A stretch of DNA of 64,000 nt from an uncultured Planctomycetia bacterium (GCA_964606485.1 CAZSGP010000004.1:230376-294375), one strand, 5' to 3'; shown: positions 1-58,501, counted from the first letter of the stretch. Program-made: numbers and translations. Notes: generated by a model from the sequence alone, not told the origin.

Positions 1-37
1 TTCCAAGGTCAAAGATAAAGAGAAGCTCGTTGTTGAG

Positions 38-10561: not shown

Positions 10562-10607
10562 TCTAATAATTTAATCGATTAATTTATCAAAAGTTAATCG
10601 AACAAAT

Positions 10608-10652
10608 AACCTAGTATGCATCCCGGAAGCATACTAGGTTATCCGGTTTATT
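10608..10652 (+). terminator. Candidate intrinsic terminator after giant ORF1
   Basis: Perfect 12-bp inverted repeat aacctagtatgc / gcatactaggtt (10608-10619 and 10629-10640) with a 9-nt loop, followed by atccggTTTaTT. It lies 47 nt after the TAA stop. Confidence 0.45.
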
Positions 10653-10718
10653 AACTTAAGCCAAATTAAGCAAATTCTTACTTTTGATATGACTAAGTAA
10701 AAATATTTTAAATGACCC

Positions 10719-10747
10719 TTGTAAAGCCCATTTCCGTCGTGTATACT
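10719..10747 (+). promoter_or_regulatory. Candidate sigma70-like promoter for giant ORF2
   Basis: TTGTAA (10719-10724), 17-nt spacer, TATACT (10742-10747), in the AT-rich 269-bp spacer about 85 nt upstream of the TTG start. Confidence 0.35.
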
Positions 10748-10830
10748 CTTCCTGTATGCAAGGGAAGCGGGAAAATTCTCTCAATTAATAAATTCATTTA
10801 TTATTGGTTTACTAAACCGGGGAACAACTA

Positions 10831-25800: not shown

Positions 25801-28800
25801 ACGAAAGCCGCCAAAGAACAACAAGAAGCCCTCGACGCTCAAGCGGATCTTAAAAAACAAATCGAGGAACTCAACGCTGCTCTCGCCGAAGAAAAAGAAA
25901 AAAGAAAAGAAGCGGAACTTGCAGCCCAAGAGGCCATTGAGGCTCGCAAAAAAGCGGAAGATGAGCTCGCCCAATTTAAAAACGAGACCAATGCAAAATT
26001 TAAAGAATTAACGGCCGCAGTCGCTGCCGCGCAAAAAATGGCCGAAGAAGCCAAGGTCCAGGCCGACGCTGCACTCAAAGAATTAAAATCCGCTCAAGCG
26101 AATGTGAAAAAAGAAGAGGCTGACGTCGAAGTGGCGAAAGCAAAGGCGGCAAAAGAAGTCGCGGAAGCACAAGCTGCGAAGGCCCTAGAAGCACAGGTGC
26201 AAAAGGAAGTCGAAAAGGTTCAGGACAATAAGCCGACTCCTGAACACAAATTTCAAAGCTTAAAAGTATTTTACAATAAAAAATTTCAAAATGCCGAGGC
26301 TAGCCAGCGTTTAGCGGCTTGGGAAAATTTTGAGGAAGATTTCAATAAACACAACACCGACCAATGGCCCTTTAAGCTCTCACCCGCTGATTTGTTGGCT
26401 GAGCTGCTTGCTGGAATTGACCATATAAAAGATCCCCAGGAATTTCAAGAGTTATACCAAAAATATTTAAAATCCTCGACTTCGCCTGAGATTATGTTTA
26501 GTGAATCTGGGGATGACAGTGGAAGCTTCGCCGCATTTATGGGATCTGATTCTGACGAAATGGCGAAGCCTGATTTTAGCGCATCTGCTTCAGGCGGCAT
26601 TCCGATGGATGATTTGCTTGCGCCTCAATCGGCAGTTATTCCCGCGGCACCCGCAACCGGTCCGCCGGCAGATGACTTACCTGCCGATATGGATTCCGAT
26701 GATGATTTGATTGTCGCTCAAGATGTGCCGCAAGAGCCAGCGCCCGATGATGTGATTAACGCCGTGGATGCGGATGAAATTCCCACTTTTGGAATTGGAA
26801 CGGTTCGCACGCATGGTTATGCAGACCCCGCCAAGCGCCCAACCGAAGAATCCATCGAAGACGCCGTATGGGCCGATTCTAAGATCGGCGCATTTTTAGT
26901 CGCGGATGGCATGGGCGGCGGCGGAAATGGCGCGACTTACAGCCGCATTGCCAAAGAAAAAATTTCCGCGTATTTAAAAATGAATTCAGTTCCGGGACTT
27001 TCCAAAGAAGAAGTTCAAAAAATTCTTCATGATGCGGTCATGCTCGCTCAAGAAAAAGTCCGCGAGGCTATTGATGCCCTGGGCTTGCCGGCGGATGCCA
27101 CTAAAGATATGGGAACGACGATATCGGTCGGGGTGATCTGGAAAGACGAAACCACCGGAAAAAATTGGCTTCTATCTGCGAATGTAGGAGATAGCCGCAT
27201 TTATATTCGTAAAGCGGATGGCTCTTTAGTCAAAGTGACCATTGATGACACCAAACTTGTCGATATGGTCGACAAGGGGTTCATGACGCCTGAAGAGGCG
27301 GAAGCCGTGGGTCCTAAGGAAGCTATCAATAATGAAATTTATAAGTTTCTCGGGAAACCCGATTTAGCACTTGATGACCTGCGCAAAGTCGAGCCGGTAG
27401 AAATCAAAGCCGGAGAAATTGCGTTTGCGGTGTCGGACGGCATCGTTGATAATCTTCAAAATCCAAATATTGCCGAGCGTAAGCACTTGGCTCAAATTGC
27501 GGCCGAAACACACGACTCTACTCAAGATTTTCTCGAAGCCTTAGCAAACGAAGCAAAAACTTTCGCGCTTTCAGATCCAAACGGCCCGAACACCAAGCCT
27601 GATGATATTTCTGCGGCGGCGGTCGAGGTGCCAGTAACGGCTACTCCTGTGGTGGAAGAGGCAACCGAAGCGCCCGCGATGGTTTTAGACAAATGGCAAC
27701 GCGCGCGGGTTTACGCGGCTTCCGCATTCATCGTCTCAAGCATTATTTCGACAATCGCTTTAATTTTTGCGACACCGGCTTTCATCGCGTGGCTTGCGTT
27801 CCCGTTTGTCAGCGCGGGGCTTTTTGGAATTATCGGTTACAAATGGGCGAGTACGGTTGATCCACCTCACGCTCAAGTTATTCCGGTCAAAGCTCTTTCC
27901 AAAATTGCGGATGAGCTGGGCGCCGCTTCACCGGAAGGGGCCTATCGAAATACGCTTAAGAAAATGATTTTAGAAGGACAAAAGCGTCTTAGTGCTCTGG
28001 TCCTTACTTCCCAACAAATCGCCGAGCAAAAAACCGACAAAGAAAAAGATCTGAATGTGGCTAAGTGGAAATGGGCGATTGGAATAACGCTCTTAACCAC
28101 CGCTGGAGGGTTAGCGGTATTTGCGCTGACGAGCGGCCTCGGAGTTTTAGGAGCGATCGCCGCATTGGGTGCCGGATCGATTCTCACCATTTTATTTTTT
28201 AATTTTATCCTTAATAAATTCATCTTCGCTGAAGCCGTTTTCGCATGGAAAAAAGCCGTCGAACGTGAAGGCGGAGTCCGCAAAATTGTTTTCAAGGAAA
28301 GCTTCATCGAGTCCTTTAAAGGTTTTATCCATCTCACCGTCGGACTGCCTTATCATTTATTCCAAGGATTCATCTTGGGAGTTTTCGAAGCCAAAATTAA
28401 AGCATATTGGTTCCCACGTTTGGCGTATCTTGTTCAACGCGTTTATCCCGGTCAAGGACGCACGACGCAAACAGATTATTTGGAATATTTGGCCGAATAC
28501 TACGCGCCGTATTTAGGCAAAATCGAAACCTCCTCGATTGCAATATACGAAGCCGCGAATTATTCCGAAGAACGCACGAAGGCGATTGACCGGGAATTTT
28601 TATTAACGAATGCATGGGAAGTTTCTCTACTGGGTGGCGTCAAAGATGCGTTTACCAAGCGTTCCATTGTATTCATTGCTGGCGCTTTGGGTAGCCCAAT
28701 TCTTTCGTTTATCGGAATTGGAACGGTGGCTTTGGGTGGTGCGCCGGTTGGACTAGTAGTGACGTTTGCGATTGTTATCGTAAGTCGGACACTCACGACG

Positions 28801-31800
28801 CGCTCGGCTTTAAAGGAAATTAGCTGGAAAGCTCAGAACGACCCTGAATTTAGCCGCGGAAAAGCCATCGCCAAAAGAATTTTGACGGATGTTGTGATTG
28901 TTGCTGCTTTTGCGGGCCTATTTGCCTTGGGCGTTACCAATAGCGCCGAAAATATCGCAAGCCTTGGAGGCGATCCTTCCACCGTTGATTTTAATTTCCT
29001 AGACCGCGGTTGGAATGTGCCTTTACCCGCCATCGGTCCGATGCACGAGCAGTCGCTTCACTTCACATTCCGAGCCATCGGTGGAGCTATGGCCACGCTG
29101 TTTGTTCTGGGCTTAAAAGATATGTGGTCGAGTGTCAGAACATATATTTATTCGGATCTCAACGAACAAATGATTCGCTACGTGTTTAAAGACGAGCGTA
29201 ATGATTACAAAGCTACCTTAGACGCCTTAAATCAAGAAGTAAAACCATCCGAGCGCAAACCATTTGTGCTGAACTCATTCGACCTTGAAAATATCTCAAA
29301 AATCATGGAAAAACTGACAGTTTCTCAACAGGCGTCGATGATTGGTTTTGTGGAAACCATGTTGTCTTCACCGAAGGTTGCTAAAAAGCTAGGCGTCAGC
29401 GGTTATCAAAAAGAACTTATTTTAAAAGCCATGTCGAACATGAAAGAGGGTTTTGATGCCGATGTGCTGACAGCGTCCTCCGTGAATTACGAACAAGCCG
29501 TCGAGGACTTTTTAGCGGGAGCGGTGACATCAAATCTTTACGCCGGAGCGTTTTTTGAGCTTTTATTCAGCAGCACATTTTGGTGGAAGATCCTAGCCGG
29601 AGTCCCGGGAATGTGGTTTGTACAAACTGAAATCAATTTAATCGTGGGTCTTGCGAAGGCCACGCATTTCACGCCTTTAGTCAGCGTTGTGAAATTGATT
29701 GAAGGAGATGAAGACTATAAGCAAGAAATTAAGCAGAGAATTGACAGTCATCAAGCAGTGGGTGCGTGGGAACACTGGGTTGCCGACGGTTGGATGGGCA
29801 TTGCCCAGCACGTGGTAGCCGTTATCCCAAATCCATTTATCTCTAACGTCAAGCTTGGTCCGTCAGATTCTGACAAAGAAAACGCCAAGATTGCAGAAAC
29901 GCTTCGCATTGAAAATGAAGCAAACGAAAAAATGGCCAAAGAAGCCGCCGCCCGCAAAGCCGCCGAAGACGCCGCCCGCGCGAAAGCCGAGCGCGAAAGA
30001 GCGGCTGAACTCGAAGCCAAGCGCGTTGCTGCTGAAGCGGAAAAAGCGAAGGCTCAGGCGGAAGCGGATGAAGCCGCGCGGAAATTCCGCGATGCGCAAA
30101 ACGAAGCCGATCGTTTAAGAAAAGCAGGAATTGAAGCCGAGCGCGTCCGTCGTGAACAAATAGCCGCTCTTGAAGTTGCGAACCGTGAAGCGGAGCTCGC
30201 GCGCCGTGAGGCGGATCGAATCGCGCGTGCCAAAGCCATCAAAGAAGCCGATGCCAAAGCCAAGGCCAGCGCTGAAGCTCTGCGCAAGGCTCAGGAAAAA
30301 TTACAGCGGAACAAAGAAGACGTTCAAATGCTTCAAGCCAAGCGTCAAGAGAGCATGGAAGCCTCTCAGCGGTTTGAAAGAGAATTTGCCCGAAAAGAAT
30401 TTCGTTCGATTAAAGATTTTGACGATGTGGTTCAAAGTCTTCGCGTTGAAGCCATGAGACTCGACAAGAAGAATCCGGGAGCCTTGGCGCGCTTTGATCA
30501 AAAGGTTCAGGAAAAGAGAGCCCAGTTTAGCCCCGCATCCAAGGAAGCTGTCAAAGAGTCCGTGAAAGAACCCGTGAAAGAACCTGTCAAAGAGGCTCCG
30601 AAGGTTGAAGACAAAGCCGCTTTAGTTCTTGAACAAGTTGCGGTCTTGAAAAACGAGGCCAAAGCGCTGGAAGCTAAGAAGGATTTGAATAGTCTCCAAG
30701 CTACGCGCGATCCCTACAAGCAAGCGCTCGAACAGATCAATCAGGCGTTAGAAACTTATCCGGACGATCAACGCTTGAAAGATGCTCGGTCGGAGATCAA
30801 AGACTCTTCTTCGCGTGTGTTTGCCAAAGTTAGCGAAGTCTTGATTTCGCAGAACCCGAAGGATGACAACTTAAAAACGATCGCGCGCGAGACTTATCCC
30901 GAGCTGATTAAAAACGCTCAGGAGTCGGTTTTCACGCTGGCGCTTGAAAAAATACTCAACGATAGCCAGGCACCGCATGTCGCGTTTGAAGTCGCCAAGG
31001 CGCGTGTAGAATTTTTAGAAGCAAAAGCGAAAGACAGTGAGACTTCGCTTACGGACATTCCGGTTCTTGCTCAAGAATTAATCCATGTTTTAGATTGGAT
31101 CGATGCCAAAATTCCAGAAGCGGTGCGCGAAGATTACACTACAGTCCAAAAAGACAAATGGAAAAATAAAGAAGAAAAAACACCCGAGCCGAAAGCAGAG
31201 CCTCAGAAAGAAGAAGTTCCTGGCGCAACGGATTTGAAGGTGGGCTTGCGGCAAATTAAAGATGCCATCGCTCCCGCGAAAGATACTCAAGATGCGGAAG
31301 AGACATTTATTTGCCCGCGGTGTAATCATGACGTTTCAGATAAGGAAGATCATTGTCCTGCTTGCGGTTTAAAATTTGAGCCAGCACCCGCTGTCAAAGA
31401 GACGCCAAAAGCAGAAGTTCCGCCTCCCGCTAAAGCGGAAACGAAGCCCGTTATCGAGCCGGGTCCAACAGATTACTTTGATGTACGTATTTTTACGCCT
31501 TCGGCCACTAACCCGAATTACGTGGTTCAGCTCTTGCATTCGTATGAGCAGATTATTCAAGAGACAAAAAATTCCGACAACGTCCGGGTGATCGATCTAA
31601 AGAGTTTTGACGCGGCAACCAAGAAATTAAAAGTGAATGGCCAGGAAACCGAAGTCACTTTTCAACAAGTCAAATCCGACCCGAGCGTTTCGTTTGGAGG
31701 ACAAATAGTAACCCCGATCGAAGATCCGCAGTCACCAGATTTAACCCATGTCAAAATTGGAGATAAAACGTACAAAATTGTAAAAGGTGTCCGCGCGCTT

Positions 31801-34800
31801 CTAACGGATCCAAAGAATTCAAACGCCCCTCGTTTAATCAAAACGAATGGTGATGTTGCTGATTTGGCGAATGACGGCTATGTGTGGCAGATTCACTATC
31901 CCGGAAAAGTGGATCGTTGGGGAGTAAAAGAATGGACCGAGTTGGCATTTGATACGGTTGCCGATCGTTTTGAAAATATGAAGGAAGCGCCAAAAGCAGA
32001 AGTTCCGCCCGTCGCTAAAACGGAAACTCCAGCTGAAACCAAATCGGAGGCACCCAAAGTTGAGCCGAAGGTTACTCCCGAACCGGCACCCGCCGCTAAA
32101 GCGGAAGAACCCAAAGTCGAACCAGCACCCTCTGTCAAAGATGCGCCAAAAGCAGAAGTTCCGCCCGTCGCCAAGTCGGAAGCTGCCGCTCCGAAACCCG
32201 CGGCTAAAGAAGAGACCGGTTTTGTCAAAGAAAACTGGTCTAAACTTAAAAATTATCTATTGGATTACTGGCAGGACACCACGCGCCGTGTGGAAGAATC
32301 TCGCGTAGCTAAGACTGAAGAAGCACAGCTACTGGCTGAGCTCGACCTCGTTCCGGCCAAAGCGCAGTGGACTGAACCTAAGGTGCTCGATTTTGAAGCG
32401 CGTATTTTTAACTCAAACGCCAGCCGCGGATTTCTTGTAAATGTTCCTGATTACAATTTGCAGCTCGTCAAGCAAACCGAAATGGTGGCCGTTAAAGGCA
32501 ACGAGAGAGAAATCATTGACCTTGCGCAATTAGAAAAAATGCCCGTCAAGCCGGTATTCATTAAAAAATCATTCTGGTCGAAGGACGTAGAAGTCACGCT
32601 TAAGTCAGGCGCTAGCTTAGAAGAGATTCAGAAGACACTGGGAGACGCCAAAGTCACGCACGTGAAGATCGGCGACAAAGAGATGGAGCTTCATCTGAAA
32701 GCGCGGGCTATTCTGACCGACAAGAACGACCAAAACGCTGATCTGCGCTTAATCGAAGGCGAAAGCGATTTAAGGAAGCTCGAAGAGCAGGGCTACCGTT
32801 TTGACATTCACTATGCTGGAGATAAAACCGGTGAGAACAAAGTCGCAGACCGCTGGGAAAAAATTGATTTTAATCTTTTAGCAGCGAAGGTCGAGTTAAA
32901 AGGCGTTGATTTGGCGCGCATGGATTTTGCGACCTTCGTAAATCAGCACGTCGAACAAAATTTGGAAGTGATGATTGCCAAAATGGATCCGAAGCTTGCG
33001 GCGGTTGCTAAGAAAGCGCTCACCATATCGGCCCAGATGAATCCCAGAGCATCTGTTGTGGCAGGTGGCTCGGATATTTTTGGGCTAAAACTCAGCATCA
33101 ACTTTAACGAAAATATGCTCAACTACGAGGAAGCTTCTCTATTAAAAGAAGAGCGCACGAAACCGGCACTTGCGGCGTTTATTAAAAACGCCACCGACGA
33201 AGCGCAGAGCGCTTTTTTTGCTCTGCTCAAATCACAAACCCACTACGAAGAAGCTTACAAGAACGCTCAATTGTGGGACGCCAAGGTTCTAGAGGCGAGC
33301 CGAAATTTTGATTTAGACAAGCGTGAAATTCGCCAAGTGGATTTCCAAAATACGATTGCCGAGCAGCGCCGCGCTTTGGAAAATCTGTATCGCACGAAAG
33401 CCCAGTTTGAGGAGATTCAAAGAGAGCTTCATTTGAAATTGGGTCTTCAGGATCCTTATTTTAACGATTTGACCATTTTACCCATTGCACCAAAAAGCGG
33501 TTACCCTGACACCTTCCGTGCGCGTGTGTATGACCATGAAGTGGCCGCACTGGACGTAAACGTTGCCGCAAAGGCAGAAGAAGAAGTTCAAAATCCTCGC
33601 TGGTCGGTGGGAATTGACATTGTCTCGTCAGTGACGCAGGTTCTCTCCATTCGCGGCGAAGCCGACATCCGTTTGTTTGAATTTGGCACGAGTGGCGCGT
33701 ATGACCAGCTGAGCACCGATCTGACAGATTTGGCGATGGTGAATGAATTGCTGATGACCCTGCTGCGCGCAAAAAATATTGAAATCAATACGATTAACTC
33801 CGAAGGCGTCGAACAGCAAATCAAAAAGGTCGAAGCGGAGATTAAGGTGAGTGAAGACATTGTGTTTGCCGCCGAAAAGGGGCAGGGCATCTCTGTTTCG
33901 CCTGAAAAATTCCGTGTTGCCCAGCGCGAACTTTATGGGTTGCAGACAAAGTACACCGATCTTAAGCTTCAAAGAGATTATTTGAAAGTGAGCCGCGATC
34001 TTGCGGCTTTAAACCGCCAAGACGACGGAAAACCGACAGCCGAGTACAAAGATCTTACGCTTCAGAAGCTTCTTGAAATGATTGACGGACAACTGAACAA
34101 GGGCCGCATTTCCCGCGATGAGTTGACGGCGGCTTTGCAAAAATCGGCCGGCACCTCGAAGTTGTTCGACCAGGTTTTAAGTTTGTCTTATAACTGGTCC
34201 GATCAGTTGACTCTGGCCGAAGCAAATGTAGAAGCAAGCTCTGCTCTGACTCGCGCTCAAAAAGACAATCGTATCCAATTTTATGCGCGTCTGCGTGCGG
34301 ATTGGGGCATTATTCCATTTTTGGATGTGGCTCCTCTTTTAGCCCGTTGGAAAGTGGGCGACGGAGAACGCCAAAGATTGAGTGAAGTGGTGGCCGGCCT
34401 TTCTGAAAAGCAGATCCCGCTTGCGCGCCAAATCACACGCAATTTGATTCACAAGCAGTTATTGGGTCTCGCGACAGACTATGCTGAAATTAATTCGAAA
34501 GTGAAGGCCGCAGACCAAGCGATCGCGCTGCTCGAGAAAAATCTTGAAGCAATTCGAGCGGAAGTGGAGAACAAGCAGTCGGTTTCGCTCACAGAAAAAG
34601 AAGCCGAAGCCATTTTGTTGTCCGCTCAATCGGCGAGGGCCAATCTGGTTCAGGTCCGGGAACTTGCCACGCTTGAGATTAAAGATCTTACGGGCATTCA
34701 TTACGGCCAAACGATTCAATTAAAAGATCTGTCAGTTGCTGATTTTGAAAAAGCACTCGAAGAATTAAAAACGACGATTGTAAAAGATTATGACTCCGCA

Positions 34801-37800
34801 GCCGATGTCAAAATGGCTGAAATTTTAGTTGAAAAAGCTAAAGCGGAAAAAGGAATTTCCCAGTCTCCCGAGGGCGTCGCGCTGGGTCTGGGGCTGGGTC
34901 TTCCGAGCATTGTGGTGGTGGAGTTGAGTGACCCGGTCACGCGTCTTTTGGAACTTGGCTTAAATGTATTTGGCGGCGAGAGCGCTCGTCAAAAAGCCAA
35001 CGCCGCTTATGAAGTTCAAGCCGGCATCAATCTGCTTGGCCGTGAGTACGAATTGGCTCAGGCCAATCAAGATCGTGTGGCGCGCGTCGAGTCTCTTAAG
35101 ACACTCGATAGTCTCACTCGAAATAGCATTGAGGATCTGACAGCCGTTTTAAGCCGCATCCAAATGCGCATTCAACAATTCCAAAATGAAACAAGCGCAG
35201 GCTTTTCCAAAAAGCGCGAATCGTATGGCGACGAGCTTGCGGCGATTTTCATTCAGGGCCGCATCGATGCCTTGAAGCAAAAAAATGCGCAGATCAAAGC
35301 GTCACTTGATTTTGAAATGAAAACACCGCTTCCTCAAGCGCCACCTGCGAAGTCCATTCAGATTCAAAATTCAGCGGATGCAGTTTCACTCTTCTTATCC
35401 AATAGCCCCGGCGTTTCAAACCGGCTGAGTGTTTTAAGCCAAGTTCAAAAATTCCCCGACACCTTTTCTGTGATTAGCCCGAGTGGTCTTGCCGAAGTTT
35501 TTGGAGTCAGCGGCGGCCTTGATCCGGACGGAAAATACCAGCATGTATTTAAGAAAGATGAACAAGTGACCACTGCTCAGGGCATTGTTATGACCCGTAA
35601 GCATCTGGCGCTATGGACACCCACCTTGGCTGTTGGAGCCGCCGCTTCGTTTGATTTAACGATTGACGCTCAAAGACGGGATTCCAAAGCGGGCGTGCAA
35701 ACGAGCGCACTGGAAGCCAAAGCAGAATTGGTTTCGCAAATTGTAGATCTTCAGGCGAAAGTGGCCGAATACAAAGCGGCCGCGAAGCGCTATAAAGAGC
35801 TAACGGCGCGAATTGCCCAGCTTAAGACTGAGCTCACCATGAACTTCCTTCATGTTCTTTTTGCCGATAAGGAAGAAGTTCTCCAAAAAAATAATCTTTT
35901 AGCACGTTATTCCACCGAACAATCCGAAACCCAGGCGCGTATACAGGACTTAAAGCGCGCCATTGGTCGTCAGGTTACCGGTGCTGAAAATGCTAACGTT
36001 GGAATTTCAGACCTTCCCGAAAAATCACCTGAATTTAGCACGGAAGTTATTAGCGGCAAGCTAACGGCGCTGGGTCTCGCTGACGTCGCAGAAAATGTGG
36101 CGCTTTTAAACGAGCAGAGCAAGCTTCACATTCAAAAAGCCGGTCAAAGTGTGCGTGGAGGCAGCGGAGGATTTTCTATCAATATTCCCTTCACGGTGTT
36201 TGGAAATCCGCGCGACGTCGGTCCAAAAGATAATATTAGGGCAATCGAAATTGAAAAAAATTATGGCTACTACAACCGCTCGGTCGCCTTTAAGAGTCTT
36301 ACGGATTATCTGGGTTCTGAAATCCAGACCTGGAATATTCCGGTGCTTCGCGAATACGCGCAAGGCTCAGGCTTTACCCAGCTATACGGTTCTAGTTTTG
36401 ACGACATTAAGCCTCTTTTAGGCGCGCTCTATTTTGAAGTGCCTTTCTACCGCCGGGCTGATTCTTATGAATTGGAAGCGGCCAATATTCGCCAGTCTCA
36501 AGCCAATCTTGGTGCGCAAAAGGCCAGAGACGAAGCCACTTACAGAGTCCGGACGCGCATGGCGGATTACAACAATGCAAAACGCGAACTAGAAAGCGCG
36601 CGCAATGTTCGTCAGGATGCGATCGCTCAGCTTGCATTGGCTAATAAAAAATCCGAATCAGGCCGTTACACCGCCGCTCAAAAAGCGGACCTCGCTCAAA
36701 ACGTGACCAGAGCCAATGCGCAAGTGATAGAAAATTATAAAGCGCTCGTTCAAGCGGCAGCAACTTTAGACGCGACAATCAAGAGCTTTACGCCGGTGCG
36801 CATTCAAAACGCCGATGAGTTTGAACAAGTCCGCAAGATGTCTCCCGAGGATCGTCGCCTGAATAATATTTTGGCCGTGAGCCCCGAGTTTTACGAAGAA
36901 GACAAATCCACCGATGATCTTTGGAGAACCGCGCGTTTCTGGAAAATCGATTCGAGCACTTTACCGGGCATTGAACAGTTTGTGGACGCGTCAAAACCCG
37001 CCGTTCAAACACAAAAGGATCCTTACACGCTGATCGATATGGAAGCCAGAGCTCGCGAACAGCTGGAAGCCGCACAAAAAGAAGTTTCTGTGCTCACACC
37101 GTCCGCACGTGTAGAAGCGTTCGCTGATCCTAAGGCTTACGCGAAGGCTTTGGAGGATCAGGCAAAATCGCGCCGCTTGGCGGAGACATCGCGCGTGTTG
37201 GCGAGCACTGACAAAGGCGGAGAAGGCAAAGTCGCTGCCCGTGTTGATAAGGACAATAATATTTTAGACCTTTACGACAAGATTGATGAAGTTCCGGGAA
37301 CGGTTGTTGAGTTTCCCGCTCGCACGGCTGAAGTATTTTTGAGATTAAGAGCGATGCTTGGTTCCGAAGTTCTGCTTCAAGACAAAGACCAACTCAAAGC
37401 CTTGATCAGCGAGCTTCAGGAGTTAGGTTTACCCTTTGACCCGACACAGGATGTCGATTTTTATTGGAACAAGGCTGAGCTTGAGCAGACGAAGAAGGCT
37501 AAAGATTTATTGGGTATCATTGGCTTTAGTGATGAATTTAATGACTTCACTACCGACCCGAAGATTTTAGCAAAGACCGCGCGTGTTTATCAGGTGGCGC
37601 GTGATGCACAGCGCACCTTGTCGTTCAAAATGATGACTCCTGAGGATTATGCTAAGGCTGAGTCCGAGTACCGAATCTGGGCTCAAAAAGCGCGTGAAAA
37701 TTCAGCCGTGCTTTTTAACGAAGCCAATCCCTTCGACCGCGCTCCACATATTTTATACGGCAGTGCGGTGGCCGAACGTGTTATCGACGGCCTCGCCGGA

Positions 37801-40800
37801 AATCCTGATCTTCAGCCTGTTTTCAAAGAAAGAGCGCTGGCCAACGACAAAGCACTGGTCGAAGGATCCGCCATTGTTCACCGCGCAACCGATGCTCGTT
37901 ATGAAGCGCTAGATTTTGACCCGTCTGCATTTGGACAGGTTCAAAAAGAAATTCAGGAAAAGTTGTCGAGCCTTGCGGATCAGATTTCCAAGGAAACAGA
38001 CGCTAGACTGAAATTTTATTTGATCAAACAGTATGTCGATGTCAAAGAACACAATTTGTACCAGGCCGAAGACGGCAGTTTCCGCGGCGTGATTTATGGA
38101 ACGAAGCAGGCTGATGAGACTGTGGAGAAAGTCCAGACGGCGCTTGAAGTCAGGCTAGGCCTTATCTCGGGAGCATTGGACGGCATGCCGCCGGACCAGG
38201 TCAGCGCTCTTTTTGAGGAAATAACCGGAAGCGTTGTAACTCCTATTTTCGGGTTAAACGGCGAGTTTGAGAGAGATGATCATGGAAAACTATGGGTCAA
38301 GGTGAGCGATCCAAAGCATAACCGTTTTCCGAGAGTCGATGTGTATGATTTGAACGGCAATCTAGAGGCGTCCTACATAGGCGGATCATTAAAAGTTGAT
38401 GTTGATGGAAACCATGTTTTAAATGTAAGGGCCGAGCGGGTCATAAGGGTTATAAAAACAAACACTTCTACAGGCGAGCCGTCAGAAGCTCAAATTTTCA
38501 CTCAAGAGGCCTCGGGCAATGAAATCTTAACGGGAGTTATGATTTTCTCGAAAGATGATCAAGGGTATTCGGTTGTCTCGGAAAAAACATTTCTAAGAAA
38601 TCCTGATGGACAAATAGTAACTACTGATGCAAAGGTTTTAGACGCCACGAATTATTCAAATGCCCGGTTCGTAACCAATACAAAAACGTATGACCCATCG
38701 AACGGGCGTGTTTTGGAGACGCTCACTCAGGACCCGCAGGGGAACAGACGGATTGCAGTATCTTATTATGATAATCCATCTGACCCAGACCAAGAGACGT
38801 CATCGCTGTTATATGCCGTAGACGACAAAGACAACCGGATCATGATCGGTCGAACGGAATCCCAGGGTTATGACGCGGATGGAAACCATCGGGTCAAGGT
38901 TTATACCATTCAAAATGCTAATTCCGTAACGGAAAAAATCGAAGTATATGACGCGCTTGGCCGTCTATTAAGACAAGAAATTCCAAGCGACCAGTTTAAT
39001 AAAACATTAATAAAAATTAATTACAAAGATGGTCAGGTCATCGGAAGTGAGACCTATTCAGAAGATAAAAATGGTGTAAAAACACTCCGATCTAAATCTC
39101 GCTTTGAGGGATATGACTCTAATGGAAACCTAGTTTCAATAGTGAGTGTATTTTACAAGGACAACGAAAAACCTATTTATGAAAAAGAGGAAGTTTATAA
39201 TTCATTCGGAGAACTTTTAAGTGAAACAGTTTCTTCAAACGAAGGAAAAATTATTACCGAAATTGATCGGGCAAATGGGGCGACGGGTCTCGAAGTGGGG
39301 CGTAGCACATTTTTTGAGCATCGCGACGAATTATTGCTTCCAGTGCGGCTGTTAATTTCTAGCGGCAAGCTTGTTAGTTTTAGCGACGGTTTATTCGTAG
39401 TAGAAGTGGAAGATTTTGCATCACACTCACGTCATCAAGACCGATATGACTTATCCGGTCGTCTTATAGAGAGCTATCTGAGAGATGAGGATGGAAGAAT
39501 TTTTAGAAAAACTATTATTGAATATGATTCGGATGGCGAAGAGTTTAAACGACTAACATATATTGCGCCTGACGGAGTTGTAACCAATCCTAAGCCGCTT
39601 TCAACGAGCCAAGTTTTGGCAGTGGATGAGTTCGGCGTTAAAACAGTGCAGGTAATAGAAGATAAAGATACTTATATCGTCCGCTTTGATCATATAGGCC
39701 GCCTAATTGAAAAGCAATTTGGAGGGCTCACCATCAAATTTAACCTAGACGTTATTGGTGGGGTTAGCTCGGTTAGCACCTTTTACGCTGGGGAATTAAT
39801 TAAAGAAGGAAGAACCACCGGATATATTTCTGATAAAGGGTTCTTTGTCCCCATAAATGAGTATTCCAAATTTATTAATGGCGGGGGAGCAATTGTTGGT
39901 GTTCGCACAGAAATCGAAGACAAAATTAAGGCCAAACAATGGCTAGAAGATTATGATTTTCTAGGCAATCAAATCCGTTCCATTACACTTCGTGAAAATG
40001 GCAGAGAAGTTGAAGTTACCGAAACAAAATATGATTCCAATTCGCGTCTTCCGATAGGCGGTGAAACTAATCTGTTTGATTGGGACAAGGATGCCAACAA
40101 CTTCACCGGAGTTTCAAAAAAATCATTAGCAGTTTCAAACTTACGAGTTGATGCCGAAGGGCGACGCGTATCTGTTGTAAAGAATCTCGAGCTTGATCTG
40201 GTTTGGGAAGAAATTCAAGATGGTCTGGGAAGGCGTCTGGCTAAATTTGGTGGAACGTTCGATGATTCTACCGGCGTCCTTCGTCGTACTTATGTCGAGA
40301 TTTCAGACTTTGAAGGTCTTACCGGGTCTGCCGGAGTTGCAAAAGAATCTATCTCCTATGAGTACACTGAAGGTAAAGACCTTGAATGGCACAAAGCAAA
40401 TGCCCTTAAAATTTCACGCAGTATTTTGACAAAGTTTGATCAGACCAAAGGAATCTTTGAATCTACGATTGAGTATTATGGAAAAGGCGGTTTAATCGTA
40501 GATGTTCTGTATGAAGTGCGTAACGCCGACGGACTTTTGTTGTATGCCGTAACCGGAAAGATGGAAGAAGGGCGTTTTGCTCCGCTTCATTTAATGAAAT
40601 ATTTTTATGATCGTGAGGATTTAAAAGCAGTAGGCATGGCTTCCGGTTCGGCTATTTATCAATATGCTGATGGTCTTTCTTACGAGGATTATCAAAGCCG
40701 TGGAGATCTTTTAGGGGAAACCTCTAAAGTCGTCGGAAATCCTATAAAAGTTTCCGGAGAACAAGGCGTTCAAATCACGATTGAAATTACCCGCTATTAC

Positions 40801-43800
40801 AAAAATGCGCCGGTCGAAAAATCAACCCAAGTCAAGGATGCCTATGGACGGGTCATAAGAGAAATAAAAGACAACGTTTTACAGGTCCATTTGTACGTTG
40901 ATCCGAAATTTAAAGCTCATGGAATTGCATCGGAGTCTATTAGCTATGCCTGGGATCCAAAAACGCAAAGAGTTTTATTCGACTCTTCAACCGGGAAGCC
41001 GATGGAATTGAAAAAATCAAGAGTGCTATGGAGTTTTGAAGAATATTTAGAAAAAGGTGTCATCAAATACGAAACATTAGATTTGATCAGCAAAGATGTC
41101 GAATGGGAAACCAAATTCCGCAACGGTCTGCTGGATCGCAAGTGGGCCATAGACCGGACTTCTCATAAACCATTCAACATGACTTTATTCAGGTACACCA
41201 CCGGAGAAAAAGGAAACGCATATCTCGGGATTGCTGATGACGTATATACCTACCAAACGAATGAATTTGGCGAAGCACTTGATGATGCCGAAAAGGTTAT
41301 CTCCGAGGAACCCGGAAAAGCACCTCTAGATGCGAAAGGTGTTCCAATCGGTTATTTTGAATACACACGGGTAGTTGAAGTTAAAAACGTGGCGGAAGAT
41401 AAAATTAATCCGCTGCACGTTGTCTATCAGGTTGCCGTAAAAAATGACGGACTAAATCTATTCGAACAATTTAAGGAAGTTAAGAACTTTAAGGGTGAAC
41501 TTTTAGCTAGAACCGTGGGACATAAATCTAAGGGGGATGCTGAGTTTACTCCCGAAAAATCCACTTTCTTTTTAAGAAACCCTGAAAGATTTGGACAATA
41601 TACAATCGCGGACCAAGCGGCAACCTACCAACATGATCCGACTCAAACTGTAACTGATTCTGACAAGGGCGTTTCTAAGTTTTCTGCCTACCTTACGCGC
41701 TTGTACTCGGAAGGAAAGGAGCTCCCTGAAATTGTCAAAGAGGCAGACTTTAATGGAATTATGGAGGACCGCTCTAGATTAAAAATAATTGTTAGAAGCC
41801 AGGGGGATCTAGCATTTGAGGCGCTATCCGGAGAAGTAAGGGTTGTCGCTGAGATGCTGAAAAAAGATCTGTTAACGAATGATGGTTGCCTTGTTTATCA
41901 AAAGGAAGTTCTGAAATACTTGAATGGTAAAGCAAAGCCAGTATCTGATTACATCGATATTGTTCTTCAAGGACGCTGGAAAAAATCTGTCCACATCCAA
42001 AGCAACTCTTATTCGGAAGTCCAATATGATGCTAAGAAAAATGTGGTTAGCGGTCATCGTGAAGAGGGGTTAAAAGTTATAGATCTTCATAGAAAGCAAG
42101 GTGAAAAGGGTCACCAGAAAATTAATCCGTATATGCCTAATCCGAAGATAGAGGATTGGTTAGTTTTCGACGTGGACTATAAAGATCAAAATGGCCACCT
42201 GCTCTTTAAGGGAGAGAAGTGGGTCGACGTTTACGGAAAGACCGTAGTGGATATCCAGTTCAAAGGCGATTACGTAAAAATTAAAGGGTCTGACGGAACT
42301 GAAGTCTTGGACGAAGCCCAGTACAAACAAAAACAAGCCTTGGCCGTGTATCTTTCCGATCAAGATCCTGTTGATTATGATTTTTCTCTCAACGAGGCAA
42401 ATCCATCAGCCGAACTTAAAGTGGAGAAGGACTACTCGCACAGCGATTTTATCTTTGTTTATCTATCGGGATCCGATCTTTTAAAGTCGTCTCCTGACAA
42501 AAATCCCGTTGTTAAGTTTGAAGTTAAAAGCGGCGAGGGTTCCAATCAAAAGACCGTGACGGTTGGCTCATCGGGGCAGCCATTTTGGATTCCGATCAGC
42601 GAAAACACACTGGACTATCAAAGCCGCTCGGTTCAGATGGTTGCGGAATCAAACGATCTCAACAAGCAGTTTATCTACGCTGTACCCGTCCAGCTTTTGG
42701 CTCGTCAGGGCGTGGACATTACGGATGTGCGTGGAATTACGGTTCGTTTATCGGCACCACTTGAGCCGTCACAGAACATTCGCCTTAGCCGTCTTTATAC
42801 GGCTGGTCAGAATGAAGACAAGTCCCGGCTAGTGACTTATACGCCTAGCGGTTCTAAGGACTCCTTCTTGGCAGTTGGGGAACTGACGGGTCAAAAGGCA
42901 TTTTTTGATAAAAAGACCGAAAATGACTACGGGCGCCGTATTAATATTTTTGGAGCAGACAACCGTCTGGTTGCTTCCATCGTAGACTATAAACATAAAG
43001 ATGAAGACAGCAATCTTTATACAGAGCTTCGCTCACTGACATTGTATGATCCTAGCGGAACTCACCCCATTGGCGGTGTCCTTCTAGATCCCCAAGGGTT
43101 GCCCATTGCCGGAACATTCCGGAAAATTGCAGTGGAATATAAGGGCAAAGAAAACGAATACCTACTGGTTCATGAATTAAACCCCGCGTCTGGCGAAGCA
43201 GAAACAACGGCTTACCAAGTCAATTCTTTAAATGCTCAGAAACCGCTGTGGCGCAAAGTGGGCGGCTACGTGTTTCTCCCGCGGATGGATGCGTCGGATC
43301 CAACATCCAAAAAAGCAAATTTACACTACAACACTTTGTTCCAAGTAGCCCATCGTGAGATCTTAGACCGATTCGGAGTCTCTTGGCTTTCTTATGAGTG
43401 GAAGGCTGGCGAGGGAAACATCGTCAGCTTAGATCCAAGAGATATTAGCGCGGAAAAGGCTATCGCCAACTCCAAGACGACCGAAGCGGACTTGAAGGCC
43501 GCTTTGGAAAGAGTCGATTTGGATTTAGTGCGTGAAGTCAGCGGGGAATATATGGCAAAGAGAATCGATAAACATGATGCCTTATCTTGGCCCGGATGGA
43601 TAAGCATTATCGCCGCAACTGTGATTTTATCGTGGCCGTACTGGATTCTCCGTTATAGCCGTAGAAAAGCAGCGGAATGGAAGCAGGAGATTGAAAAGAG
43701 AAAAGAAAAGGCCAAAAACGCGGATTATTTGTTTGATGTGAATAGCCCAGAATATATTCAAGCGCTTAAGCGTATGAACGAGAACGTCTTTAAAGTCTCC

Positions 43801-46800
43801 GTACGGGCTGATGGAAAATTGATTACAAGCGATGGAGACATCGAGGGCGCATTTCTCCAGCATCTCTTTTTCTTGTACGTCATGGTTTATTCTTGGCATC
43901 AAAAAGCGGGCTATCAGAGCGTTGACTTGGAAACAAAGCTTAAAGAGCTTGATGAATTAGCGAGGGCCATTTCTAAATTTTTGGCCGAGCAGGCGGCGGC
44001 GTCTAAGCATCCGGAGGATGCGGCTAAGAAAGAGAAGCATAAGAAAAAGTTAGAAACAACTCAGAAATACCAGGTGGATCAAAAATTTGACCCTCAGCTT
44101 TGGGGCTTCTTGAGTATATATCTTTCGGAGTTTAATTTAGAACTGCGCGAAATTTGGGATAACGAACGCAAAGACCCAAATTCAAAACCGGGCGATGAAA
44201 GCTTGTTTGCAGCTAAATGGAAAGAAGTCGTCAGTGAGCTTCTATCCGATTCGAACGGTAGCCGCTTAGCCGATCGAAAGTTTAATCAAGATAAATTCAA
44301 TAAATTTATAAAAGATAAAAACTTCGCGTCGGTCCCTAATTTTTACATTCAATATGGTCGCTACTTCATTCAAACAATCCCCCAGATTTTGGCGGCTATT
44401 CTTCTCTTAGGAGGAAAAATTGCTTTGGGGAGTGGAGCGGCCTCAACGGGCGGACTATTTACGGTGCTCGGATTCGCAGCAGTTGGGGTGGTTGTTGGAC
44501 TCGTGGCACTTGTTGTGAACGCTAGGAGTGAATATCAAGCGATTTTAAGTGCTCGTAAAGTTGATTCCGAACACTCTAGAGGTCGTTACTTGCCAGTTTT
44601 GGCGGCCACAATATTTACTGGAACAGCGGCAACACTGCCCTTTTTGATGGGCATGACCATTTCTATGGCCGCAACCGGACTTTTAGTGACTGCGGCGTCA
44701 ATTTTTACGATGGAAACCTTGGGGCTAACGCTCGGAAACCGGTCTTTCGTGGGCGTTGCTTATACTTATCTTCTTCGTCCACCCGCCCGCGTGGGAAGAG
44801 ATCGTGCAGTCGAATTATTCACTAAAGGCTATTGGCTTTATACAAGCATGTTTTTTGTCACCATGCTTTTAGTTTGGTCATGGTTTTCTATGAACTTTGC
44901 CAATGCCAATGCGGGACATGTGATTATTGCGGGGCTTTACGTCATTTCCGGCATGCCGCTTCTACGCTTTGGTAGCAACCAAGTGATGAGAGCTTACTAC
45001 ACTCTCTTCAAGCCCGACCGTGGGCCAAAAGAGGTAAAGGACACGACTCCACCAGCTAAAAATAATACTCAACCTGATAATTTACCAAAAGGTAAAACAG
45101 CCGTTGTTTATGTCGGAGGAAATACACTGGCTTCAGATGTGAGATCGCTTGATGATAGCTCGGATGACAAAAAGATTATGGCTGCTCATGAGAAAACTTA
45201 TGAAAAAGCCATTTCTCAGCTTTTAAATCACACCGAAGGAAAAAATACCTTGCTGCTCTTTTTGGAAGACGCAAAAACGAGACTTAAAGACATGAAGGTT
45301 GATACGAATGATCGCAAACAGATTTTAGCAATTTTTTCGGATTGGCTCATGGTGCTTCGTAAAGCCGAGCTTCACGGGAATGCATTAAAGAAACGCGTCA
45401 GTCTGTGGAATTTGCGCCAAATGGATGATCCCAATATTCCGGAGGCACTAAGAGTCGGTTTTGATTTGAACCCCGAGGATAAACTAAAAGTTAAATTTGG
45501 TTGGGAGCTTCAACGTTACTTAATCGATCAATTAGGTGTTGGTGGTTCGAGCTTGAACACGGGTATCAACATGGCAGCTCAAGCAGAAGCATTCAATAAG
45601 GCCGGTATGTCGGATTCGGTGGTGTTTCATTTGGTGATGAATAAATACGAAGACCATAATGATAACCAGACTCCAAATAAGCTCGATCTCAATTCTAATT
45701 CAAAAGAAAGCCGTGAGCTAAACCAGCGCGTCCTGCTAGCGTCATTGATTGACTATCTGATGAGTGCCGGAACCGGTAAGCCGATGGGTTCCTCAGCATA
45801 CGTCATGTATGATCATACTGTGTTTGGTATGAAGTCCGCGGCCATGAATGCTATTTTTATGAAGCCTGAAGATATTCCTCAGCTTCGCTCCATGGTGGTG
45901 ATTGACCGCAATGCCACGGTTTCGGATCTTGATAAATATGTGGAAGACGTTAGACGGATGTCCACAAACCCACACATGGCCATTATTACAACATTTCGCA
46001 ACACGACTTATACATTAGACGTGACGGGAAATGCCAATGAAGGAATTGAAGCGGGTCACGGGCAAAATTTGATCTCTTTGCCGAGTGGCTTAGGAACGGG
46101 TTGGGGTAATATTATCCGCGTTCCGTTTACAGAGCTCATGCAGCAATTTGCCGATCCGGATTCTCCATTCGTGTCTTTCGCCGGTGATTCAAAAAATATA
46201 AAAGATATGAATCAATTATTTGGAATGATCGGATTTGCTCCAAATGCTATTGGAATTAGCGAAGATAACTGGGCGGCGGTTCAACAAAATCACAATCTCA
46301 TCGGCATGGGTTATGAGCCAGAGTACGGTGTTTCTGAGGCTACATGGACGAAAGTCAGAGAAAAACAAAGCCTTGCGGAGTTAGAAGCGGCACCCAAACG
46401 TTGGTCGAGCGGTCTTGTCCAAACGATTAATGATTTGATGAACCAACAAGCATTGGAATTTGGTCCCGATTCCTTCTTTGAAAAAGAGTCTCGACACAGC
46501 AACTCGGACCTCTATCACTTGTCGACGATCGCATTGTTCCAAGTGGGTCTGACGGCCATATCCGCGGTCTTCGGATTTTCTCCGTTTATTGGTCTAGCGG
46601 CTATTATCTGGATGATCGGGCTCTTCTTCAATCAGATCATGATATTTAACTACTGGGCCTATCATATGAAGGTCATGGGCTTTCAAGTGGGGATGGGAAT
46701 GTTCTTTTCGCGTCGTTTGAGTGATGCACTGTTTTTTGCTAATTATAACGTGCGTATGGCGCTTTCCTATGTAATGGGAACCATCGGAGTTTCGTTAGAG

Positions 46801-49800
46801 TTTGTAATGTCCGGCGCCAAAAACGAGGACTTGCCCTTAGAAAGCATCTTATTTGGAAAGAGCATTAAAAATATTTACACGGACGCTCAAAAGGCCGATC
46901 CAAACCTCGATTTGAAGAAACGATTTGCGAAGTTGAATCTTGTAAAAAACCAAGCATTAACCCAGCTTAACATGAAGGATAATCTCGCGAGTTTTCTTTA
47001 TACATTCATTATTGGCGCCTTATTATTTGCGGCGAATGTTGGAACAATTATTTTTGCTAACGTCGATTGGAACGCAATGAACATTGTCACCATGTTTTTC
47101 TCAGTGCTTTTTTCAGTAGGCGCTATGTTTGGACCATTTTTTACCGCAGCAAAAGTTGGTCGTTCTTTCTGGAATGGCTGGGGAGATGTGTTCTCAAAAG
47201 TAATGGGTTTTGGGGTAGGCTTTACCATGTTATTCGGGGCATCATACCTTTTAGCGGCCCATGCTTTTGGTGGTTTCAGCATTCTTTGGGCATTTGTATG
47301 GACCGCGTCATTCGTAGTCCTTTCCTTGGGATTAAAAGTACTGTCAAATCCATCAGAGTGGATTAAAAAATTGCGGGCGGTAGACCTGATACCGGGGACT
47401 GATCTCGATAATAAGATTATAAAATGGACTCTAGAGCTTACATGGGTTAAAGGTTTTCTCACCTTTGTTCGTAAGCCTCAATTAATACGTTGGGCTTCTG
47501 AGATGCAAAAATCACTTTGGTTGACCGTTCTCTTAATGGGACCATTCTTATTCGTTCCCGCTCAGGCAACTCCTAAGATCCCACTTATTTCCAAACCGTT
47601 GATTGAGCTTTTTGGATTGCCGGCGCTAACGCTCTCTGGTTCATGGTTAATTTTTGCTGGGTTTTCGTTCGTGGCAATATTCTTGGCATGGATTGTATAC
47701 GCGAAGATCAAATTAGAATACGAGCAGAAGAAATTAGATAAGATTCATAACCAAATTTCTAATTTATTGGTGCAGATATCTGAAAGACTTCCGAGCTTTT
47801 CCGAGTCCGAAAGGGAGGCAGCACTGAAAGCCATGGCCGAAGTTTACGAGATTCGTTCTTATATTCGAACACTTCGTCAACAATCTGCATTGGTTCTAGA
47901 GGCAGAAGCTCTGGATAAAGCGAAGGCTATTCTCTCGCCATTCAAGATAGTTAATAGTCGTGGCGCGCGACTTGCCGAACAAGGGCTGTGGGGTCGGATG
48001 GTTGATCGTTATTACTGGTTAAAAGCGGATCTATATATGATGCTCTATGGTCAGAGGCTTAAAGATGCTCTCCGAGGAGTGGTGGCCAAACCTGATGAGA
48101 GACAGCGTTTGAACGAAAAAACCCATCTATTGGCGAGAGAGTTGGTCGCGAGTAGCAGTGTTTTATCCTCCAGAGTCGCCATCCAGCATGATTTGCCCGA
48201 CAACTTGATTCATCGGTTCGAGGATGACGCAAAATATTTACAGCGTATTTTGGATATTTTAATTGTAGATACGCGTAACGGTTATGATTCAACAAAAATA
48301 GTGAAAGAACATTTGTTCGTCAGAATGCTCGACTTAATGACCGACAAAGAAATTGACGGAACATTAAAGTTAGCGGAAGCTGCTGTCAGCAACGATATTG
48401 AGGTTTATCATCTCACGAAGGCGCTCGTAGAAGCTCGCCGACGGTTTGAAGATCGTGAAATTTATAAAAAATACATGGGTGTTATTGCATCCTTGTCCAA
48501 AAAAGGAACTGTAGAGATGCTCCATACAGCGGAGCTACTTTATCCGCTTTATCCTGGCGTCTCGGATGAAAAGCAGAACCCTCAGACTTTTGCATTTCAG
48601 AGAAAACTATACGAGAGATATGTATTGTCTATTATGGAGGAGCTTTCCAAGCATTTTACAAATATAAGCCAGAATATTGATGAGTTGCGTCCTTTGATTC
48701 GCGAAGTTTCAGACCGGGATGAGGCTATTGTGTATCTCGAGTTAGCGCTATCGATGGCCACTAAGGGCATGGAGTTCGGGATGACTTTCCGACATATTTT
48801 TAGCATACGAAAAGCGTTTCCAGGAAGTCCAATCTCAAAAGAAGTCGCAAGCGTTATTGAATCTTCAAAACGGTTAGTTGGGCAGGGAGTTAACCCAAGA
48901 GTTTATACAGGACAAGCGGTTAAGCAAATATTAATGCTTGGGAGCCAAGAAGATGAGAAAACAGCTGGAAGTCGTTTAGCTGCCGCGGAGGGCTACTTAT
49001 TGCGCATCGAGAGACTCGCGCTGGATCTTAAAGCCCTTGGGTTCGAAGGGAATTCAGAGATACCATTTATTATTCAAGAGGGTTTAAAGACGGTAACTGA
49101 TTTAAGCTCTGTTGACAAAAGACTTGAAACTCTTAAGGCCGTGGTTGTCCGTTTGAAGGCGGAAGGAATTCCGATGAACACAAGCCCGGGTCTTGAAAAT
49201 CTGGTGTCTAAGGCACTTGTTCTGGGGGGCAATGTTGATCAGTTGAGGTTTACGTATATCCCTGAAACGTCTCAAATGGTTTGGAGGCCTGGGCGTAGAA
49301 TGAATAATCCTCCCATTAGCGAGCCAGATTATCAGGAATTAGAAGTCAACCCAGCTAGGATTGAGGTTTCATTGAAGGAGAAGCGTGTGGGCGGCGCTCG
49401 CTTAGCTTCCACCAAAAACATCATCGCCGTCGTCACCCCGACAGCTGGTTTTGACGATGCCGTTTCAAATTTAGAAGAAGCTTTAGGGCCTGCCGTTTCT
49501 AAAGACACGAACATTGTTGTCGTTCGTAGCGGCGCTCGCTTCGCGAAGGCCCGTGCAGGCAATCCCGCCGTGGTCGCGATTTTGGATTTGCCGAAAAACG
49601 AAGCTGAGCAAAACATCGCCGTTTCAACGATTACGAAAGTCTTTGAAGCACGCCGTAGAGCACAGAACGCAGTGGCGGGTTTATTGGTAAAGGGCATCAA
49701 AGATTCTCAGATTCAAGACCTCATCGCTCGCGGTAAAGCGGATGAGCTGAGCATTACCAATCTTTCTGAGGCATTAAATGAAATTGAGGCCAATCTTTCA

Positions 49801-50634: not shown

Positions 50635-50656
50635 AACTTTACCCTTCCCGGTTCAA

Positions 50657-50690
50657 CCTGCCTGCCGGCAGGGAGCGCGGGGTTTTTTTT
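50657..50690 (+). terminator. Candidate intrinsic terminator of giant ORF2
   Basis: cctgcc(tgcc)ggcagg inverted repeat at 50657-50672, GC-rich gagcgcgggg, then T8 at 50683-50690. It lies 23 nt after the TAA stop. Confidence 0.55.
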
Positions 50691-50698
50691 GTTATAAT
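50690..50698 (+). promoter_or_regulatory. Extended -10 element (TGtTATAAT) for the TPR/VWA/GT4 operon
   Basis: tgttataat at 50690-50698 lies immediately after the terminator T-run and about 7 nt upstream of the GTG start at 50705, so the transcript may be leaderless or have a very short leader. I saw no clear -35. Confidence 0.3.
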
Positions 50699-50704
50699 AG
50701 ACGG

Positions 50705-57553: not shown

Positions 57554-57558
57554 TCGAA

Positions 57559-58452: not shown

Positions 58453-58501
58453 CTTTTTTGTAACCTATCACCACCTCCGGGGTGGTAATGGTAAGGCGGA
58501 C

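Follow-up and report, generated by a model that had tools for sequence, protein, structure and literature searches.

A strongly diverged YD-type repeat array, apparently without an Rhs core and joined to a conserved membrane module, in a giant protein of an uncultured Planctomycetia bacterium

Two roles are known for YD/Rhs repeats: in bacteria they build toxin containers that are sealed and cleave themselves, and in the teneurins of animals they form uncleaved adhesion shells. The stretch of DNA analysed here, 64,000 nucleotides from an uncultured Planctomycetia bacterium (GCA_964606485.1 CAZSGP010000004.1:230376-294375; hereafter the window), raises the question of what such repeats do in the middle of a giant bacterial protein. 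Its largest open reading frame (ORF), ORF2, had been marked in a first-pass annotation as holding an Rhs/teneurin-like YD-repeat shell at 38340-43101 that ends near a DPxGL-like motif (DPQGL, 43087-43101), and this was taken to mean either a non-canonical use of the shell or a module of the polymorphic-toxin type whose processing frees the C-terminal part of the protein. Both sets of coordinates are correct, and the region corresponds to residues 9170-10757 of ORF2, inside one open frame. We consider it probable that the region forms an uncleaved, extracytoplasmic, coreless YD-type array and not an Rhs toxin container, and that it belongs to one chain with a conserved membrane module. Of the two halves of the earlier interpretation, the non-canonical use of YD repeats thus stands, whereas the model of a processed toxin shell falls on an unconserved motif, a missing core, and a downstream module that is conserved and collinear among homologues.

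That the region contains repeats of the YD type is evident from the distribution of the motif itself. YDxxG occurs eight times in ORF2 against 1.2 +/- 1.1 in shuffled sequences, and seven of these occurrences fall within residues 9172-9708, where 0.18 would be expected and where none of 2000 shuffles reached seven. The broader form [YFW][DN]xxG is similarly concentrated, with 10 of its 13 occurrences in ORF2 lying between residues 9172 and 10739, and a still looser hairpin pattern is about 12-fold denser in the region than outside it (10.1 versus 0.86 per 1000 residues). The claim of at least ten YD-type repeats was therefore a fair one, with the qualification that the clear repeats span residues 9172-9708; the description of the array as being roughly the size of an Rhs shell also holds, and the repeats are real, if diverged, members of the YD/Rhs type.

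The search with curated models that had been proposed for these repeats was borne out in part. With the giant proteins cut into pieces of 1000 residues or less, the RHS_repeat model PF05593 matches residues 9100-9920 with 23.8 bits against a cut-off of 22 (expectation value, E, 6e-5), which is marginal, and when the sequence is cut in two other ways the scores are 20.0 and 17.1 bits; TIGR01643 reaches 18.4 bits against a cut-off of 15.8; the Rhs core model TIGR03696 gives no match. An exhaustive HMMER search with residues 9170-10369 against 1.84 billion representatives returned 16 proteins (best E 3.6e-32), namely other giant proteins or fragments of them together with small proteins, P0013 and P0016 among them, in which YD motifs are densely packed. 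Protein searches by word index, whether with the region or with alignments A2 and A4, came back empty, which we do not read as absence, given that the exhaustive search found homologues; scans of reference genomes (twice) and of metagenomes (twice) for related loci yielded no relatives.

The homologues fall into several kinds. P0001, P0003, P0006, P0007, P0010, and P0014 are YD-rich fragments or proteins that show the same pattern even more clearly than ORF2, and in P0007 a unit of about 95 residues, IEVYDPVGNLIRQEIP...GRE..R...F......LS.G.F..FD..GNAVVDI, is repeated with about four hairpins per unit. P0002, P0004, P0005, P0011, and P0008 are giant proteins of 5,100-6,500 residues, P0002 being a complete gene of 5,109 residues and P0008 originating from assembly GCA_043809745.1; the giants are collinear with ORF2 from residue ~9900 to ~12300, through the membrane module, at 25-29% identity over 2,100-2,600 residues, with the alignment of P0011 extending to residue ~11800, where its own sequence ends, and those of P0002, P0004, and P0005 reaching ~12300. 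The short homologues are P0009, P0012, P0013, and P0016, and the YD-dense P0013 and P0016 were matched only at E 1e-4 to 1e-3.

The region is best described as about ten super-repeats of ~100 residues, each with roughly four hairpins, and it can be divided into successive parts (Table 1). In the YD-rich part, which we call type A, the hairpin motifs are often paired 26-28 residues apart, with pairs recurring every ~80-110 residues. Type B, in which five copies were aligned from hand-picked seeds, consists of units that open on a YD-like turn (EEIQDGLGRRL, EVRNADGLLL, QVKDAYGRVI, ETKFRNGLLD, EVKNFKGELL) and end in G[IV]AxxSxxYxY; its first unit (9793-9857) is related to its second (9894-9957) in an hhalign comparison across alignments A3 and A2 (E 2.3e-5), and it is the best-conserved stretch in P0002, P0004, P0005, and P0011. 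Recognisable repeats thereby span ~1,100 residues and are followed by 475 residues of conserved, beta-rich sequence with a single clear YD hairpin. A self-BLAST of the region detects no internal repeats, and the super-repeats emerge only at the profile level.

Table 1. Coordinates of the array, of the segments that follow it, and of the two giant genes of the window
Feature	Position in the window (nt)	Strand	Residues of ORF2	Remarks
ORF1	38..10561	+		3,507 residues; giant gene adjoining ORF2
ORF2	10831..50634	+	1-13,267	13,267 residues; single uninterrupted ORF; host protein of the YD array
N-terminal lead-in, conserved	38194..38340	+	9122-9170	GEFERDDHGKLWVKVSDPKHNRFPRVDVYD; aligns with P0007 GDYIRDDTGRIWLLVTDKTHNKPDKVEVYN
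YD-rich array, type A	38341..40185	+	9171-9785	nine [YFW][DN]xxG hairpin motifs
Type B array	40186..41676	+	9786-10282	five degenerate super-repeats of ~100 residues
Terminal beta-rich part of the putative ectodomain, conserved	41677..43101	+	10283-10757	collinear with P0001, P0002, P0004, P0005, P0011; no match in Pfam, NCBIfam, or the PDB
Last conserved YD hairpin	43042..43080	+	10738-10750	LYDPSGTHPIGGV
DPQGL	43087..43101	+	10753-10757	three residues after the last conserved YD hairpin
Juxtamembrane segment	43102..43578	+	10758-10916	homologue alignment unbroken past DPQGL
Transmembrane helix (hydropathy scan)	43579..43653	+	~10917-10941	ALSWPGWISIIAATVILSWPYWIL, then RYSRRKAAEWKQEIEKRKEKAK
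Polytopic membrane module, conserved	44386..47703	+	~11186-12291	~14 hydrophobic helices
Loop domain	45028-46530	+	11400-11900	~500 residues, between two transmembrane clusters

Structure prediction adds a further line of evidence for the identity of the repeats. An AlphaFold2 model of residues 9100-9920, built on a 12-sequence alignment, consists of beta-hairpins throughout, with a predicted template-modelling score (pTM) of 0.57 and a predicted local distance difference test (pLDDT) of 75-88 over ~530 residues (model positions ~200-730, residues ~9299-9829). When this model was compared with the PDB by Foldseek, the best 23 matches were all YD-shell proteins (E 7e-17 to 5e-9, probability 1.0), among them the Rhs cores of type VI secretion systems (T6SSs), Tse5, Tse15, RhsP, teneurin-2 and -4, TcB-TcC, and SGS1, and beta-propellers of the DDB1 type followed them in the list at E ~1e-8. 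A model of the remainder (residues 9880-10870) finds teneurins and TcB-TcC as its best matches (E ~1e-6, TM-score <0.1), which in a low-confidence model can be no more than a hint. Short helices recur between groups of hairpins in both models, the second being again of low confidence, and ~110 strands are predicted over the region of ~1,600 residues. Taken jointly, the statistics of the motif, the matches to both curated models, the link made by the exhaustive search, and the fold matches identify residues ~9120-10757 as a strongly diverged YD (Rhs-type) beta-hairpin array.

Whether this array closes as an Rhs container does turns largely on the DPQGL sequence, which had been likened to the motif that closes Rhs shells ahead of the autoproteolytic junction. 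In Rhs proteins the core terminates in PxxxxDPxG[L/W/F] and has an aspartyl protease sealing the cocoon (PMC8765631). DP.GL occurs once in ORF2, against 0.13 expected, and at the site, PIGGVLLDPQGL, the proline stands six residues upstream and not four, so that the spacing of PxxxxDPxGL is wrong. The first-pass annotation had named lack of conservation as a finding that would refute it, and the motif is kept in none of the five aligned homologues, where its place is taken by WSDDGRL, LSRTAAR, LSDENEI, WPDKNDL, and LYPDGRR; nor does any of the 16 homologues have DPxG[LW] at this site, the sole match (P0001, residue 600) lying elsewhere. The LYDxxGxxP hairpin 15 residues upstream is kept in the homologues, and in its longer form, LYDxxGxxP[ILV]xxV, columns Y199, D200, P206, and V210 of the six-sequence alignment are invariant. 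The simplest reading would make DPQGL a lineage-specific, degenerate turn of the YD type and not an Rhs cleavage motif, and this would explain its likeness to the Rhs motif; the P0007 turn VYDPVGNL is comparable to LDPQGL of ORF2. A single DPxGL beside YD repeats is therefore no evidence of an Rhs junction, since a YD turn and the motif of cleavage look alike.

Searches for the core itself point the same way. Neither TIGR03696 nor PF05593 matches residues 10371-10890 even at E<=10, the family profile of residues 9880-10870 finds nothing in the PDB, and hhalign gives that profile a probability of 0.1% against E. coli RhsA. The proposed check for the aspartyl protease thus ended without a match to the Rhs core in the TIGR03696, PDB profile, and RhsA comparisons. 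On these comparisons the array is without an Rhs core or aspartyl-protease domain, its core protease having been either lost or never present, and it would not be cleaved. The Pfam scans of ORF1 and ORF2 likewise returned no PAAR domain, VgrG-binding clade domain, or TcB-partner delivery domain, and no NHL, EGF, FN-plug, or Tox-GHH match around the array.

What follows the array is equally telling. The earlier observation that the cargo position is occupied by a large polytopic membrane module and not by a small toxin proved right. The hydropathy scan, which finds ~25 hydrophobic helices in ORF2 as a whole, places none that is convincing between residues ~8034 and 10917 and then a transmembrane helix ~160 residues downstream of DPQGL; this hydrophobic helix and a K/R-rich stretch after it recur in P0001, P0002, P0004, P0005, P0006, and P0011. 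By the positive-inside rule, the YD array would lie outside the cytoplasm. A charged segment of ~240 residues separates the transmembrane helix region from the polytopic module, whose helices form two clusters (residues ~11186-11385 and ~11913-12291), and a helical tail of ~980 residues comes after the second. The module is 25-29% identical over ~2,400-2,600 residues to its counterparts in P0002, P0004, and P0005, and its loop domain shows 28-42% identity to those of five other giant proteins, with the invariant or near-invariant motifs GISED, EGGH, GTGWxN, and DxN, which look enzyme-like. The loop domain has no Pfam relative (any member sequence) and no PDB relative (six-sequence profile), and a single-sequence phmmer search of the PDB with the C-terminal module found no match. 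A kinship of the loop domain with beta-glucan/callose synthases, guessed from the sequence GISEDNWA, was dropped, since no PDB relative and no Pfam enzyme family came forward. Judged by the alignments, the downstream ~2,500 residues are a conserved partner of the array and not the variable tip of a polymorphic toxin.

Several results weigh against this account and set the firmness with which it can be held. PF05593 and TIGR01643 lie barely above their cut-offs and are seen only in pieces of ~1000 residues or less, neither being reported when a piece of 4,767 residues was scanned whole, and a single-sequence phmmer search of the PDB with the YD region found no match. The family profile A3 does match solved Rhs proteins (7q97 at E 5e-18, 7pq5 at E 3.7e-9), and hhalign of A3 against RhsA gives E 1.2e-3 at a probability of 19%; when the profile was rebuilt without P0012-P0014 and P0016, a set that includes the YD-dense P0013 and P0016, and thus from the giant-protein sequences alone, its E-value against E. 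coli RhsA was 14, and for the sequence of the window alone it was 87 (both with a PDB-sized Z). Since the match vanishes without these four short proteins, the sequence-level link to Rhs is transitive and marginal, and the A3 match was dropped as decisive proof and kept as transitive evidence. The model of residues 9100-9920 has global TM-scores of 0.12-0.16 to Rhs cocoons, with root-mean-square deviations of 21-34 Å, and these low scores beside Foldseek matches of high probability mean that the local fold is YD-like while the shape of the cocoon is not reproduced; the proposed check by prediction for a closed beta-shell thus gave a local and not a global match. The model of residues 9880-10870, from six sequences, is mostly strands at a mean pLDDT of 48.9. 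Finally, the extracytoplasmic placement, whose only basis is the hydropathy scan and the positive-inside rule, is to be held less firmly than the identity of the repeats.

Against this background the competing explanations can be compared. A canonical-style Rhs/Tc cocoon, with an aspartyl autoprotease cutting after DPQGL to free the C-terminal 2,500 residues, would account for the size of the array, for a local structure like that of Rhs proteins, and for the one DP.GL of the entire protein lying just past the last conserved hairpin. We nevertheless give this explanation very little credence, because the motif is missing in all five homologues and wrongly spaced, no Rhs core is matched, the downstream part is conserved and not hypervariable, no immunity gene follows ORF2, and 2,500 residues with at least 14 transmembrane helices cannot fit a cocoon that takes 15-30 kDa (PMC8765631). 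At the opposite extreme, the region might have no kinship with YD repeats and be a generic beta-hairpin stretch, of beta-propellers or a beta-solenoid, in which YDxxG arose by convergence, as the empty single-sequence PDB searches, the failure of the giant-protein-only profile to reach RhsA, and the presence of propellers such as DDB1 in the Foldseek list might suggest. This we regard as quite improbable, given YD models of both Pfam and NCBIfam above their curated cut-offs, an extreme enrichment of the motif, an exhaustive search that reaches small YD-dense proteins, and a list of fold matches whose first 23 entries are exclusively YD-shell, the best leading the first propeller by eight orders of magnitude in E-value.

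A further comparison concerns the geometry of the array. The closed beta-cocoon of Rhs toxins winds some 76 or more strands into a shell that is sealed. The ~1,600 residues and ~110 strands predicted here would amply suffice for a cocoon, and a closed, uncleaved, empty shell of the teneurin type, with the lead-in and the C-terminal beta-rich part as plugs and a role as a platform for adhesion or recognition, would agree with the conservation of both ends of the array and with the teneurins among the best fold matches of both models. Uncleaved, membrane-tethered shells do exist in teneurins (PMC8765631). This arrangement seems to us doubtful, though worth keeping in view: the TM-scores to cocoons are low despite ~530 confidently modelled residues, no FN-plug, NHL, EGF, or Tox-GHH domain was found, the tether is C-terminal, opposite to that of teneurins, and the regular super-repeat of ~100 residues suits an elongated helix equally well. 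We lean towards an open rather than a closed form of the uncleaved YD-type array, because of that regular super-repeat, the low global TM-scores of a half-model that is itself confident, the absence of any recognisable plug or core domain, and the precedent of hollow beta-helix tubules of ~1,500 residues in Omnitrophota giant proteins. The array runs as a single chain into the transmembrane helix ~160 residues on and from there into a conserved membrane and cytoplasmic module of ~2,400 residues. Lying outside the cytoplasmic membrane, it would form a rigid, spirally wound wall of beta-sheet and would thus be a hollow stalk or scaffold that the downstream module holds at the membrane. An improbable but consequential variant would make the array a membrane-tethered hollow conduit coupled to the polytopic module, whose loop domain has the enzyme-like motifs, in a previously undescribed envelope-spanning machine that passes a product, or part of its own chain, through an Rhs-like tube; if true, the YD fold would gain a third use, neither toxin nor adhesion.

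By analogy, the nearest precedent of the array would be the tubule of Omnitrophota giant proteins, a hollow antiparallel beta-helix of ~1,500 residues that its authors call Rhs-like (West-Roberts et al. 2023, bioRxiv 10.1101/2023.11.21.568195). The comparison, made with the published description, rests on 1,588 residues of predicted beta-hairpins in an unannotated part of a protein of more than 10,000 residues with multiple transmembrane helices. The tubule is described as a hollow single-stranded helix with regularly spaced alpha-helices on its exterior; in our models short helices recur between hairpin groups, and the sequence has the super-repeat of ~100 residues. Omnitrophota giant genes are reported to have conserved pilZ genes downstream (10.1101/2023.11.21.568195), and a PilZ-domain gene (29247-29717 of locus L005) likewise lies directly downstream of the 6,410-residue gene of the homologue P0004, which hints at the taxon of the giant-protein family. 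A difference is that most giant proteins of that study carry a SecA_DEAD domain (10.1101/2023.11.21.568195), for which the Pfam scans of ORF1 and ORF2 gave no match. With the teneurin shell (PDB 6fb3, 6ske) the array would have in common that YD repeats serve, uncleaved, as an extracellular structural module in a protein anchored to the membrane, and an active aspartyl protease is absent from both; the FN-plug, NHL propeller, EGF repeats, and ABD/Tox-GHH of teneurins are not detected here, and whereas teneurins have a type II anchor, here the array comes first and is followed by the anchor and by a huge polytopic module. The Rhs/Tc cocoons (Pseudomonas protegens RhsA 7q97, Tse5 8cp6, TcB-TcC 4igl/6h6e) share YD-type hairpins with ORF2 and are its best local structural matches, but ORF2 lacks their PxxxxDPxG[LWF] core, aspartyl protease, encapsulated hypervariable toxin, and immunity gene, as well as a PAAR, VgrG, or TcA-binding domain.

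The two giant ORFs together make up ~79% of the window and are nearly blank to annotation. ORF1 has no Pfam match, also when cut into pieces of 1000 residues, and the only matches of ORF2 above the curated Pfam cut-offs are, besides the marginal RHS_repeat, PP2C_2/PP2C and a marginal OEP. The former marks a phosphatase domain of the PP2C/SpoIIE type at residues ~5343-5600 (26857-27630; PP2C_2 E 1.8e-7, 31.4 bits against a cut-off of 24), directly followed by a cluster of strongly hydrophobic helices (residues 5629-6035). The OEP/TolC match (residues 8531-8648, 36421-36774; 22.3 bits against a cut-off of 22) is part of a long stretch of helices that immediately precedes the YD array, and it would fit a location outside the cytoplasm. 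Several zinc-ribbon models match weakly, below their cut-offs, at residues ~6824-6851 (31300-31380; best E 0.0028). At 18001-26000 the coding strand is much richer in A than in T (AT skew 0.42 at 20001-22000, and 0.27 at 18001-20000 and 24001-26000), which suggests that ORF2 residues ~2400-5000 include long stretches of low complexity or of charged coiled coil, and weak Pfam matches of the coiled-coil type lie at residue ~2800.

Downstream of ORF2 the genes encode, in order, a TPR protein, a VWA protein, a GT4 glycosyltransferase, a hemD-hemE-hemH-hemY-like cluster, an acyl-CoA dehydrogenase, and a response regulator, and we find, in agreement with the first-pass annotation, no immunity-like gene after ORF2, the next genes being those for TPR, VWA, and GT4. 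The ORF of the TPR protein (743 residues) overlaps the end of ORF2 by 95 nucleotides as listed, and the VWA and GT4 genes follow it with overlaps of 4 nucleotides (block 50540-55589), an arrangement that looks like a single operon including ORF2. The TPR genes downstream of ORF2 and of P0004 are not orthologues of each other, and no conserved synteny can therefore be claimed. Further on, hemD-hemE-hemH and a HemY-like amine oxidase are tightly arrayed at 55692-59956, the order hemE-hemH-hemY being one of genomes with the coproporphyrin-dependent haem pathway; hemE has an exact copy on a short (4.4-kb) Logan contig of run SRR12487046, the sole exact match of a gene of the window.

What is new at this locus is that giant proteins of a rare family join a YD array, apparently coreless, to a conserved polytopic module. 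If this account is true, it defines that family, with 16 representatives among 1.84 billion, together with a conserved partner module that has no known relative in Pfam or the PDB. One of the "dark" structural regions in the giant proteins of bacteria would also be identified at the level of sequence, and Rhs-like tubules, which have been seen only by structure prediction, would be tied to the YD family by homology.

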